Shown: positions 22,729-25,974, counted from the first letter of the stretch. The stretch is 27,053 nucleotides of DNA from Burkholderiales bacterium (GCA_044351195.1 JBILGF010000001.1:1-27053), one strand, 5' to 3'. Notes: generated by a model not told the origin, from the sequence alone. Translations and numbers: made by a program.

Positions 22729-23076
22729 TCAGCGCGCGCCGGCGGCCCGCCCGCGCATCGCCGCTACCGGCCACACATACGCCGCCGCGATCGCCCCGAA
22801 CCCTGCGCCGATCGCGGCGAGGTTCGCCCAGTCGACCCAGTAGCCCATCTCTGCGAGCGAGGACTTCGTGAGGTAGGGCACGACGAGTACCGACACCACC
22901 ATGACCGCGATGCCGGCGAGCACGGCGGTACCCAGCCCTGCGCCCCAGCGCGCCCCGGGCCGGCGCAGCGCGACCACGACCAGCGCGATCCAGGCCAGCG
23001 CGGCGACCAGCAGCGCGGGCCAGATGCTCATGGCGATTTCCCAGACGATGTTCATTGCAAGCCAGATCTCGTACAT
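22729..23076 (-). CDS. Small integral membrane protein (~3 TM), SQR-associated; possibly DUF5368-related
   Basis: GAGGAG RBS before ATG 23076; three hydrophobic stretches and an SSLAEMGYWVDW loop; 14 nt downstream of the SQR-like stop. The DUF assignment is recollection only. Confidence 0.8.
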   Translation of the reverse strand: MYEIWLAMNIVWEIAMSIWPALLVAALAWIALVVVALRRPGARWGAGLGTAVLAGIAVMVVSVLVVPYLTKSSLAEMGYWVDWANLAAIGAGFGAIAAAYVWPVAAMRGRAAGAR

Positions 23077-23090
23077 GGTGTTCTCCTCTT

Positions 23091-24452
23091 TCAGACGCGG
23101 CCGCGTGCAACGGCGAGGTAGGCGGGCTTGAGCAGGCGATCCTTCATCAGCCATGCGAGGTAGCTGTCCTGCAGGGGAGAGATCATCGGCAGCGATGGCA
23201 CCAGCCGGCCTTCATAGTCGAACTCGATCAGCATCGCGGAACCTTCCCGGGTGATCAGCGGGCAGGACGTGTAGCCATCGAAGGTCATGTTGGGCGGGCG
23301 TCCCGCGATCACCTCGGACAGGTTGTGCGCGACTACCGGGGCGCTCTTCTTCACGGTGGCCGCGGTCTTGCCGCGCGGCGTGCCGTTGACGTCGCCGATG
23401 CCGAACACGTTCGGATAGCGGCGATGCTGCAGCGTCGACTTGTCGACCTCGAGCCAGCCGCCAGCGGCGAACGGGGCCTGCTTCGCGGCGAGGTCGCTGT
23501 TGCGCACTGCATCGGGGGCGCGCGTGGGCGGCACCACATGGATGAAGTCGTAGGGTTTCTCCTGCTTCGAGCCATCAGCGGCAACGAAGGTGGCGCGACG
23601 TGCGCCGATATCGATCGATTCCATACGCTGGTTGAACTCGACGCCGATGCCCAGCGCCTTCCAGCGCGAGAGCACGTTCTCGTTGACCGTGGGCACGCCG
23701 AACACGTTGCCCAGCGCCGACTCGAAGGTGATGCGTGATTTCTCGAGCATGCCGGCCTGGCGCAGCCGGTCGCGCAGCATGAAGGTCATCTTGAGCGGGG
23801 CACCCGCGCACTTGAGCGGTGTTGCCGGCAGCGTCATCAGTGCCTCGCCACCGGTGCGGGTGAATGCCTGCATTGCGCGCCACGTGGCCTCGGCCGCCTG
23901 TGGGCTGGGATAGACGCTGGCCAGGCCGTTGCTGCCGATGGCGGATACGTCCATGCCGGCGATCTGTGCGTAGTCGAGGTGAACGCCGGTGGCGACCACG
24001 AGGTAGTCGTAGGCGATGCGTTTGCCGCTGGCGGTAGTCAGGCTGTTCGATTCCGGTTCGAAGGTGGCGACCATCTCCTTCACCCATTCGACGCGGCCCG
24101 GCTGCAGGTCGGCATTGCGCTCGCGTACCTTGGCCATCGGCCACACGCCGGTGGCCACCAGCGTGTATCCCGGCTGGTAGTTGTGCTCTTCCTTGGCGTC
24201 GACGATGGTGATCTTCACCCCGTCGAGCAGCTTGCCCAGCCGTGCGGCGACCGCGATGCCGCCCAGGCCGCTGCCGGCAATCACGACATGCGCGCTGGTG
24301 CGGACCGAGGCGCGCACCTTCGCCGGCGTGCCGGTGGCGGCGGCGGCCGCCGGCGCGAGCAGCAGCGCCTGCATCCATCGTCGGCGCGACGTGTCCCCGC
24401 AGGTGTCGGGGGGCGCGGCGGTCTGGTCGGTTCGCGGCTTCAGGGGTTGCAT
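23091..24452 (-). CDS. sqr: Sulfide:quinone oxidoreductase-like flavoprotein (type II motifs) with twin-arginine leader
   Basis: Rossmann VVIAGSGLGG, HNYQPGYTLV, KCAGAPLK, NVFGIGD, FDGYTSCPLIT (both catalytic Cys motifs of type II SQR); leader SRRRWMQALLLAPAAAAA; GAGGAG RBS. Confidence 0.85.
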   Translation of the reverse strand: MQPLKPRTDQTAAPPDTCGDTSRRRWMQALLLAPAAAAATGTPAKVRASVRTSAHVVIAGSGLGGIAVAARLGKLLDGVKITIVDAKEEHNYQPGYTLVATGVWPMAKVRERNADLQPGRVEWVKEMVATFEPESNSLTTASGKRIAYDYLVVATGVHLDYAQIAGMDVSAIGSNGLASVYPSPQAAEATWRAMQAFTRTGGEALMTLPATPLKCAGAPLKMTFMLRDRLRQAGMLEKSRITFESALGNVFGVPTVNENVLSRWKALGIGVEFNQRMESIDIGARRATFVAADGSKQEKPYDFIHVVPPTRAPDAVRNSDLAAKQAPFAAGGWLEVDKSTLQHRRYPNVFGIGDVNGTPRGKTAATVKKSAPVVAHNLSEVIAGRPPNMTFDGYTSCPLITREGSAMLIEFDYEGRLVPSLPMISPLQDSYLAWLMKDRLLKPAYLAVARGRV

Positions 24453-24560
24453 GCAGTGACTCCTCACAATGGCGCTGGGGCGGTGCGCGGTTGGACGATG
24501 GGTCGTTCTATGCCCCTGCCTGCGGCTCAGCGTCCGGGCTGGATACGCGCATGGATACGT

Positions 24561-25004
24561 TCACGGCGCCACCGAGATCGGCGCGCCGTCCGGCTTGCGC
24601 TCGAGCAGCGCATGGATGCCCATGCCGGCCAGCATGGCCAGCACGAACACGGCTGCCTTCGTCTCGCCCATCCCGAGCGCGACCAGCGCGGGCCCGGGGC
24701 AGAACCCCGCGATGCCCCAGCCGATGCCGAACAGGAGGCTGCCGCCGACGAGTCGGCGGTCGAGTTGCGTTGCAGTCGGCATGCGCATCGGCTCGCCGAG
24801 CAGCGACCGCGTGCGGCCGCGGGCGAGCCCGAAGGCCACCAGCCCGACGGCGATCGCGCCGATCATCACGAAGGCGAGCGAAGGGTCCCAGCGGCCAGCG
24901 AGGTCGAGGAAGCCCAGCACCTTGGCCGGGTTGGCCATGCCGGACAGGATCAGGCCCAGCCCGAAGACCAGCCCGGCGACGAGTGCAGAAAAAGACGGCT
25001 TCAT
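24561..25004 (-). CDS. YeeE/YedE family sulfur-compound transporter subunit
   Basis: GLVFGLGLILSGMANPAKVLGFLD, WDPSLAFVM, LFGIGWGIAGFCPGPAL; start trimmed to ATG 25004. Confidence 0.92.
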   Translation of the reverse strand: MKPSFSALVAGLVFGLGLILSGMANPAKVLGFLDLAGRWDPSLAFVMIGAIAVGLVAFGLARGRTRSLLGEPMRMPTATQLDRRLVGGSLLFGIGWGIAGFCPGPALVALGMGETKAAVFVLAMLAGMGIHALLERKPDGAPISVAP

Positions 25005-25024: not shown

Positions 25025-25456
25025 TCAGGCGAACAGGTGGCGGACGAGGAACACCGTGACGAACCCGGCGCCCATGAAAGTGAGGGTCGCGACCAGCGAG
25101 CGCAGCGACAGGCGGGACAGCCCGCATACGCCGTGTCCGCTGGTGCAGCCGGACGCGTATCGGGTACCGATGCCGACCAGGAGGCCGGCGGCCACCAGCG
25201 CGCCATACGACGCATCGATCTGCACCTGCGGGACAGGCGACAGCAACAGCCAGGCGATCGGTGCCGCCACCAGGCCGGCCACGAACGCTGCGCGCCAGCC
25301 GATGTCGCTGCGCACGGGCACGAGCAGCCCGCCGACCACCCCGCTGATGCCGGCGATGCGGCCGTTGAAGAACAGGAGGATCGCCGCGGCCAGTCCGATC
25401 AGCACGCCACCGGCGGCAGCGGTGGCCGGGGTGAATGAATTCCAGTCGATGCCCAT
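25025..25456 (-). CDS. YeeE/YedE family sulfur-compound transporter subunit
   Basis: GGVLIGLAA, GRIAGISG, GLLVGIGTRYASGCTSGHGVCGLSRLS. Confidence 0.93.
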   Translation of the reverse strand: MGIDWNSFTPATAAAGGVLIGLAAAILLFFNGRIAGISGVVGGLLVPVRSDIGWRAAFVAGLVAAPIAWLLLSPVPQVQIDASYGALVAAGLLVGIGTRYASGCTSGHGVCGLSRLSLRSLVATLTFMGAGFVTVFLVRHLFA

Positions 25457-25460
25457 GGCT

Positions 25461-25775
25461 TCAGTCCTTCGGACAGTAGAGCGTGTACAGAACCTTGAGG
25501 ATCTCCAGCATCGCCGGATCGGCGACGCGGTAGTGGATCTGCTTGCCGTCGCGCCGGGTGCTCACCACGCCTTCGTTGCGCAGCACGCCCAGTTGCTGCG
25601 ACAGCGTCGGCTGGCGGATGCCCAGCGCTTCCTCGAGTTCGCCGACGCAGGCTTCGCCCTGCGACAGCTGGCACATCAGCAGCAGCCGATCTTCGTTGGC
25701 GAGCACCTTGAGTGCGGACACCGCCTTGCCCGCAGCGGCGCGCAGTACGGCGGGATCGATGGCGGTTTTCTGCAT
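25461..25775 (-). CDS. bigR: BigR-like persulfide-sensing ArsR/SmtB repressor
   Basis: LANEDRLLLMCQL, VGELE, QPTLSQQLGVLR, LYTLYC; Cys35 and Cys101 are 66 residues apart as for Xylella BigR Cys42/Cys108. Confidence 0.88.
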   Translation of the reverse strand: MQKTAIDPAVLRAAAGKAVSALKVLANEDRLLLMCQLSQGEACVGELEEALGIRQPTLSQQLGVLRNEGVVSTRRDGKQIHYRVADPAMLEILKVLYTLYCPKD

Positions 25776-25790
25776 GGCAAATGGCCGAAA

Positions 25791-25836
25791 GCTTTCAATA
25801 TACTGAACAATAAAATATATCTAGATAGAATGTCAA
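25791..25836 (-). promoter_or_regulatory. Sigma70 promoter with overlapping AT-rich candidate operator for the bigR operon
   Basis: Minus strand TTGACA (25836-31), 18-nt spacer, TATTGT (25812-07); palindrome TATCTAGATA (25818-27); ATATACT-N9-AATATAT; most conspicuous AT-rich island in the window. Confidence 0.65.
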
Positions 25837-25974
25837 CTGGTACCGACGTCTGTTCGTCCTGTCGTTCTCCTCCCCCACGGCTCCCCCGCCATTTCTCCAT
25901 CCCCCCGCTTGCGCGCCGCGCCGCTAACCCGGAACATCCGGCCCTCCCCACCCGCGGCCGCGAAGGCACATCGC

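Follow-up and report, generated by a model that had tools for sequence, protein, structure and literature searches.

The subject of this report is a short operon on the minus strand of a 27,053-nucleotide stretch of DNA from a Burkholderiales bacterium (GCA_044351195.1 JBILGF010000001.1:1-27053); we call this whole stretch the window and count all coordinates on it. At the center of the operon lies a gene, sqr, for a flavoprotein that resembles the type II sulfide:quinone oxidoreductases (SQRs) and begins with what appears to be a twin-arginine translocation (Tat) leader; it is followed directly by a gene for a small membrane protein. The features on which the argument turns are these.

23091..24452, minus strand: sqr, precursor of a type II-like sulfide:quinone oxidoreductase, 453 amino acids (aa) (Pfam Pyr_redox_2, match to human SQOR, AlphaFold2 (AF2) model)
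24460..24465, minus strand: Shine-Dalgarno sequence GAGGAG, with a 7-nt spacer to the ATG at 24452
24309..24452, minus strand: predicted Tat signal peptide, residues 1-48 (SRRRWMQ, Ala-rich h-region, basic c-region ending VRA)
23796..23813, minus strand: KCAGAP with the redox Cys215, aligned to human Cys201
23259..23276, minus strand: GYTSCP with the redox Cys397, aligned to human Cys379
22729..23076, minus strand: 115-aa protein with three transmembrane helices, a remote DUF5368 relative, 14 nt past the sqr stop and with its own Shine-Dalgarno sequence AAGAGGAG at 23083-23090

The GAGGAG sequence ahead of the ATG at 24452 places the start of sqr upstream of the twin-arginine motif. Two other starts were rejected: a GTG at 24467, five codons further upstream, overlaps GAGGAG and has no Shine-Dalgarno sequence of its own, and an internal ATG (Met27) has none either, while the leader that it would discard is conserved at the protein level. 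The original prediction for this gene, made from the sequence by eye, had described a twin-arginine leader and an Ala-rich h-region ahead of the Rossmann fold, with the reservation that the true start might lie downstream of the arginines; the leader is indeed part of the translated open reading frame, and the signals for initiation lie before the upstream ATG and not the inner one. The precursor opens with a polar n-region of 21 residues, followed by SRRRWMQ (24369-24389); residues 22-48 read SRRRWMQALLLAPAAAAATGTPAKVRA, where the h-region is rich in Ala, Pro, Thr and Gly and weakly hydrophobic (mean Kyte-Doolittle value 1.07), and the basic c-region ends in K-V-R-A. The first Rossmann strand, with GSGLGG at residues 60-65, begins 7 residues past VRA. 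The precursor contains three cysteines, namely, Cys18 in the leader, Cys215 and Cys397, and the mature part would hold only the last two.

The relationship of the sqr product to SQOR is evident at several levels. Beyond a Pfam match to Pyr_redox_2 (2e-14), phmmer searches against the Protein Data Bank (PDB) align it with human SQOR over residues 55-441 (E 6e-74), and with Aquifex type I SQR (E 1e-23), FccB (E 1e-14) and Acidianus type V SQR (E 2e-7). In the SQOR alignment, KCAGAP and GYTSCP fall on Cys161 and Cys339 of the human chains, which a single offset of +40 converts into Cys201 and Cys379 of the human precursor, exactly the correspondence originally proposed. In an alignment of 21 relatives with 29-83% identity (A1), K214 is invariant and C215 is conserved in at least 90%. 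The AF2 model has a mean predicted local distance difference test (pLDDT) score of 88.8, and its top PDB matches in Foldseek are again human SQOR, with a template modeling (TM) score of 0.92 and a root-mean-square deviation of 1.6-2.3 A over about 405 columns, whereas type I SQRs and flavocytochrome c sulfide dehydrogenase (FCSD) reach TM scores near 0.75-0.78. The top NCBIfam match, at 195 bits, is the model for type III SQRs; the same model gives 199-255 bits with mammalian SQOR and with leaderless and DUF442-fused bacterial type II proteins, compared to 321-376 bits with type III-like proteins, and we therefore regard the match as the generic cross-score that true type II proteins also receive and reject a type III identity. 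An identity as FccB was rejected as well, given the weak similarity and the lack of a cytochrome in the operon. Sequence comparison and model taken together, the best-supported assignment of the sqr product is to the type II (SQOR-like) FAD-dependent sulfide:quinone oxidoreductases, and it would, by this assignment, reduce quinone. Two Tat-bearing relatives in A1, P0180 and P0240, lack both redox cysteines (VKAENAS/VKGAGTS and GYTAAP/GYTVAP in the respective positions), so that cysteine-based SQR chemistry is impossible for them.

The leader shows the conservation expected of a working signal. Among the 120 best homologs (72-100% identity, 433-487 aa), which come from metagenome-assembled genomes (MAGs) named Rubrivivax, Polaromonas, Hydrogenophaga and Noviherbaspirillum, all but one (119/120) have the arginine pair ahead of the Rossmann fold, 108 have a Trp two residues after it, and a small-x-small site (mostly ARA, also VRA and AQA) occupies a conserved position just before the fold. 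Across the much broader range of A1, R23 and R24 are invariant while the remaining leader varies freely. This is the pattern expected of a translated Tat motif under selection, and not of untranslated DNA or a chance extension of the reading frame. The Trp of SRRRWMQ is W, F or L across the family, with F or L in the distant relatives; the doubt that the original prediction had attached to this residue, on the ground that the consensus has Phe, is misplaced because W is the norm of the subfamily and not a defect. In the AF2 model, residues 1-46 form an appendage of low confidence (pLDDT below 50 at residues 1-23 and 32-46), and high confidence sets in from residue 50 onward. The genome, a MAG that is 81% complete, encodes TatC (PF00902, with a score above the threshold); its gene is in two pieces, at the ends of contigs C40 and C169. 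Judged by these comparisons, translation includes the Tat leader, which is strongly conserved; the sqr product is probably exported by the Tat system, and cleavage would be expected after VRA, at residue 48.

In phylogenetic trees, the sqr product falls among relatives with similar leaders. FastTree, run on 132 relatives, unites the sequences with Tat-like leaders in a single group of 46 rows that includes the query (SH-like support 96); the sister group, of 80 rows (SH-like support 99), combines leaderless or DUF442-fused bacterial enzymes with proteins that carry presequences of the mitochondrial type. A quick IQ-TREE run under LG+G4 on 67 rows likewise leaves the query outside the clade of leaderless and mitochondrial enzymes (SH-aLRT 99) and recovers a proteobacterial Tat-bearing subclade that includes it (support 100), but resolves the Tat lineages as a basal grade instead of a clade, so that the two trees differ in their deep branch order. 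The original designation of the protein as a type II SQR is thus sound with respect to sequence, fold and the pair of cysteines, and needs to be qualified in that the protein lies outside the canonical type II clade, either in its Tat-bearing sister group or in the grade below it. In this IQ-TREE analysis, which has FccB-like and type III-like outgroups, the Tat lineages branch below the leaderless and mitochondrial clade with weak support (SH-aLRT 80), a hint, from tree topology, that type II enzymes could have been exported ancestrally.

The combination of a type II SQR with a Tat leader is not new. A subclade in our trees, around the sequence P0130, carries the names Sulfuricurvum, Sulfurospirillum, Halarcobacter and Campylobacterales. 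In 2015, Han and Perner reported that every type II SQR of Epsilonproteobacteria carries a TAT motif, and published trees label the Campylobacterota members type II (PMC4584964); PMC6382920 cites bacterial type II enzymes as active SQRs. From the names in the P0130 subclade, we conclude that the statement on the TAT motif concerns the same Tat-bearing part of the family, and the novelty implied by the original prediction was, to that extent, overstated. The Tat-bearing group is large, with thousands of database members in the subfamily, and spread over Alpha-, Beta- and Gammaproteobacteria and Campylobacterota; the sqr product is a genuine, if rather ordinary, representative of this widespread group.

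The most consistent companion of the Tat-bearing SQRs in Proteobacteria is the small membrane protein encoded downstream. The 115-aa protein has no Pfam match at E 0.01 and is missed by a scan of the genome with DUF5368 (PF17336) at E 1, and one member of its family (L046) scores 20.4 bits against the DUF5368 model, below the cut-off of 25. Comparison of profiles with hhalign, in contrast to these searches, matches its family (A2) to DUF5368 members (A3) with a probability of 96% (E 3e-9), and it is this profile-profile comparison that supports homology with DUF5368; the neighbors of more distant Tat-SQRs do match the Pfam family (4.9e-35). A DUF5368-like gene lies directly downstream of the Tat-SQR gene in 69 of the 71 proteobacterial loci, out of a set of 80 named genome loci, whose downstream sequence was long enough to tell. 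Among the hosts are Rubrivivax benzoatilyticus JA2, Thauera, Comamonas, Methyloversatilis, Melaminivora, Ectothiorhodospira, Psychrobacter, Aliidiomarina, Propionivibrio, Phaeovulum and Rubellimicrobium. The neighbor is also present at all eight Tat-SQR loci from a sample of 301 genomes of the order, and at none of 13 leaderless type II loci. Conversely, the family profile matches 7 of these 301 genomes, and 6 of the 7 matches adjoin a Tat-SQR. One match, at G240:C1:2813927-2814100, is partial (profile positions 52-109); it lies in a genome with no Tat-SQR at E 1e-30, and may be a remnant or the neighbor of a divergent enzyme. In a contig from a Polaromonas MAG (L082), two SQR and DUF5368-like modules stand in tandem, their SQRs being 66% and 48% identical to the query.

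The AF2 model of the 115-aa protein (pLDDT 90) consists of an N-terminal amphipathic helix and three transmembrane helices (residues 2-17, 19-38, 47-69 and 80-108). Invariant in the family are Y2, W5, N9 and E13, and a loop with S72, D82 and W83 (TKSS...YWVDW) is conserved; by the positive-inside rule, the amphipathic helix and this loop are predicted to face the periplasm, an arrangement that would fit contact of the conserved residues with an exported enzyme. The protein has neither His nor Cys and hence is not a heme subunit. The literature that we searched contained no mention of DUF5368 or of this partner of the SQR. On the strength of the gene linkage, the DUF5368-like protein is most likely a physical partner of the SQR.

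Other genes around the Tat-SQRs speak to the sulfur chemistry. At 14 loci of relatives there are metallo-beta-lactamases of the persulfide dioxygenase type, which have no signal peptide. Rhodaneses bear a Sec signal peptide at 11 loci and a lipoprotein signal at 6, and a secreted DsrE-like protein is encoded at 6. Also present are a SulP-STAS permease, subunits I and II of cytochrome bd and, as regulators, a sigma-54 activator, Crp and BigR-like proteins (about 10 loci). The periplasmic sulfurtransferases provide an argument for a periplasmic enzyme that is independent of the leader, and they are candidate sulfur acceptors; the cytochrome bd genes that often accompany the SQR suggest a respiratory module that tolerates sulfide. 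The rest of the genome holds a homolog of the cytoplasmic persulfide dioxygenase on contig C115 (1-1986), 63% identical to that of Thauera and adjoining a C-terminal fragment of a gene for cytochrome bd subunit II, and a membrane-anchored rhodanese on contig C165. The arrangement on C115 echoes the linkage of cytochrome bd and SQR in the Thauera and Methyloversatilis loci. On contig C36 (824-2567, L002), the genome encodes in addition an FccB/SoxF-like flavoprotein, 25% identical to the query, with a Tat leader and a lipobox (SRRTFIAASATGASLALAGC) and with a small secreted reading frame just upstream.

Upstream of sqr, the operon contains the following features.

24561..25004, minus strand: DUF6691 protein, 147 aa, YedE-like half of a split YeeE/YedE sulfur-compound transporter, start MKPSF (Pfam DUF6691 4e-60, weak Sulf_transp)
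25025..25456, minus strand: YeeE-like half transporter, 143 aa, with a GCTSG motif (Pfam Sulf_transp 1.3e-7; NCBIfam TsuA 3e-6, below the cut-off)
25461..25775, minus strand: BigR/SqrR-like ArsR-family repressor, 104 aa, with Cys35 and Cys101 (HTH_5 4e-15)
25807..25836, minus strand: sigma-70-like promoter TTGACA-18-TATTGT, enclosing the perfect 10-bp palindrome TATCTAGATA, which was read by eye and not picked up by a search for inverted repeats

In the direction of transcription, the order is thus promoter, BigR-like gene, YeeE-like half, DUF6691 gene, sqr and the gene for the 115-aa protein; an SbcC-like gene in convergent and a SEC-C gene in divergent orientation mark its borders. None of the five operon products contains CxxCH. 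The repressor scores 104 bits against the NCBIfam BigR equivalog model, for which the cut-off is 155; its Cys35 and Cys101 occupy what we take to be the positions of the sensing cysteines of BigR and SqrR. The promoter is followed by TTCAGTATATTGAA, of the form TTC-N8-GAA (window 25800-25840, minus strand). The palindrome TATCTAGATA and this element are candidate operators, and the latter resembles the SqrR/BigR operator consensus.

We consider it likely, with a probability of roughly 0.7, that the operon encodes a Tat-exported, periplasm-facing SQOR-like SQR that works with its DUF5368-like membrane partner under persulfide-responsive control. Under this scenario, the SQR would fold and take up FAD in the cytoplasm, the Tat system would export the folded precursor, and the leader would be cut after VRA, so that the mature enzyme comes to lie on the periplasmic side of the inner membrane. 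In this position, Cys215 and Cys397 would together oxidize H2S to enzyme-bound sulfane sulfur, with the electrons passing via FAD to the membrane quinone, and the three-helix protein could serve as a membrane dock or as a site for the handling of quinone or sulfane. A single promoter would drive the putative persulfide-sensing repressor and the two transporter halves ahead of sqr; the YeeE/YedE-type transporter could bring the oxidized sulfur, as thiosulfate or persulfide/polysulfide, through the membrane and so supply the cytoplasmic persulfide dioxygenase whose gene lies on contig C115.

Several observations weigh against this scenario, in whole or in part. SRRRWMQ differs from the consensus S/T-R-R-x-F-L-K in three residues, namely, W, M and Q. 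The protein ends about 36 residues earlier than human SQOR and keeps one predicted C-terminal helix (431-449), which makes membrane binding and the quinone site less certain. In tblastn searches, YeeE neighbors were found at none of 80 related loci and BigR at about 10, and the combination of BigR with a split YeeE was unseen in other loci, so the link to the transporter rests on this operon. In the sample of the order, sqr was not found in seven genomes of the same genus; recent horizontal transfer was rejected on composition, the GC content being flat at about 0.68 across the window despite these seven congeners without the gene, and the cassette has the look of something accessory in this lineage. 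Finally, the downstream cytochrome c of Campylobacterota implies that quinone is not necessarily the acceptor across the whole Tat-bearing group. In Campylobacterota-type Tat-SQR loci from metagenomes (L117-L196), a monoheme cytochrome c lipoprotein with CxxCH is often encoded 5-36 nt downstream, other loci have in its place a conserved 77-aa protein with two transmembrane helices or a 107-aa secreted protein ending in SGNVPSC, and the DUF5368-like gene is present at 0/80. Some of the published type II SQRs with TAT motifs may thus work as flavocytochromes.

Three alternatives have to be set against the exported, cleaved enzyme. The one that survives best, although improbable, accepts export by the Tat system but supposes that the leader is not cleaved and anchors the enzyme by its N-terminus on the periplasmic face, as in Rieske proteins. 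The AF2 model, with a continuous helix over residues 21-40, is compatible with such an anchor, as are the distance of only about 7 residues from VRA to the first Rossmann strand and the short C-terminus, which has fewer amphipathic helices than human SQOR. Against it stand the low hydropathy of the h-region, broken by Pro, Thr and Gly, and the conserved small-x-small site, which suggests cleavage by signal peptidase I. Slightly less plausible still is an exported flavoprotein with no quinone-reducing activity, which passes electrons to a periplasmic carrier, in the manner of FCSD, or acts on another sulfur substrate. FccB and SoxF are classical Tat substrates, an FccB chain (5n1t) aligns from the leader onward (query residues 22-374), and both the cytochrome genes of the Campylobacterota loci and the two group members without redox cysteines point the same way; against this, the operon encodes no CxxCH protein and the DUF5368-like partner has neither His nor Cys, the similarity to SQOR far exceeds that to FccB in both sequence and fold, and a C-terminal helix like the membrane-binding one of SQOR is kept. 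A cytoplasmic enzyme, whether translated from Met27 or bearing the twin-arginine stretch as a non-functional extension, is very improbable: the in-frame ATG right after RRRW and the three non-consensus positions of the motif lend it some color, but the ribosome-binding site precedes the upstream ATG alone, the protein sequence of the leader is conserved over a far wider range of relatives than its DNA, the arginines being invariant at 29% identity, homologs without the inner Met retain the leader, and the leaderless type II enzymes form a separate clade.

The reading of the sqr product as an exported SQR with a membrane partner can be taken one step further, to a bolder proposal that we consider possible but doubtful. 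The exported SQR and the DUF5368-like protein could constitute an obligate two-subunit periplasmic enzyme, in which the partner supplies the membrane dock, the quinone site or the sulfane exit that was lost with the short C-terminus; this form might be ancestral to the type II/SQOR family, with loss of the leader and of the partner on the way to the cytoplasmic and mitochondrial enzymes.

The site of sulfide oxidation matters because it decides the downstream fate of the sulfur. A periplasmic SQR, if such is indeed the case here, keeps H2S away from cytoplasmic and respiratory targets. The SQOR/persulfide dioxygenase pathway has been worked out in mitochondria and heterotrophic bacteria; the periplasm has no glutathione (GSH) pool to take up sulfane sulfur, and the products or acceptors of an exported enzyme must therefore differ from those of that pathway. 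The need for a different sulfur acceptor, which the original prediction had raised, is plausible on this ground, and the possible periplasmic outlets are polysulfide, sulfite (yielding thiosulfate) and a periplasmic rhodanese. Periplasmic SQRs of other types are textbook knowledge, but the Tat-bearing SQR group has, to our knowledge, hardly been studied biochemically, and its genes are currently annotated only as "NAD(P)/FAD-dependent oxidoreductase". The near-universal DUF5368-like neighbor gives an uncharacterized family a concrete, testable role.

Among the closest known systems are the TAT-bearing type II SQRs of Campylobacterota (PMC4584964), with which the sqr product shares the Tat-bearing part of the tree, the SQOR-like core, the two redox cysteines and the twin-arginine leader. 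These proteins are 38-41% identical to it, and differ by an insertion of about 25 residues, leaders of the SRRDALK type, and a downstream gene that often encodes a monoheme cytochrome c or the 77-aa protein with two transmembrane helices, in place of the DUF5368-like one. The canonical bacterial SqrB proteins, leaderless or fused to a TIGR01244/DUF442 sulfurtransferase, belong to the same family and have the same cysteine motifs (35-41% identity), but lack the leader, carry MPIKCAGAPQ, DGYGSCP and the C-terminal tail LKGREWLA, form with eukaryotic SQOR a clade separate from the query (SH-aLRT 99), and have no DUF5368 neighbor at any of the 13 loci; members of the same bacterial order encode such proteins too, in a setting of persulfide dioxygenase and rhodanese genes. 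Human SQOR (PDB 6OI5, 6MO6, 8DHK) is alike in fold (TM score 0.92), in both cysteine motifs and in having no third cysteine, at an identity of 34-35% in the Foldseek alignment and, by estimate, nearer 40% in that of phmmer; it differs in its mitochondrial presequence and in a C-terminus longer by about 36 residues. FccB and SoxF, of FCSD, are likewise Tat-exported flavoproteins of the same superfamily, but their identity to the query is at most 25% (E 1e-14), and FccB needs a cytochrome c subunit, for which the operon has no gene. Human SQOR faces the matrix, topologically the cytoplasmic side, and its known acceptors, GSH and sulfite, are matrix metabolites. The type I SQRs (Aquifex aeolicus 3HYV, Acidithiobacillus ferrooxidans 3T31; E 1e-23, TM score about 0.75) have three cysteines and no classical Tat leader, whereas the sqr product has two cysteines in its mature part and a Tat leader. 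Type I SQR is a monotopic flavoprotein that sits on the outer face of the membrane, oxidizes sulfide, reduces quinone and releases polysulfide, and the enzyme of Rhodobacter capsulatus likewise faces the periplasm. A periplasm-facing type I enzyme that releases polysulfide thus provides a working model for how an exported SQR could operate without a thiol acceptor.

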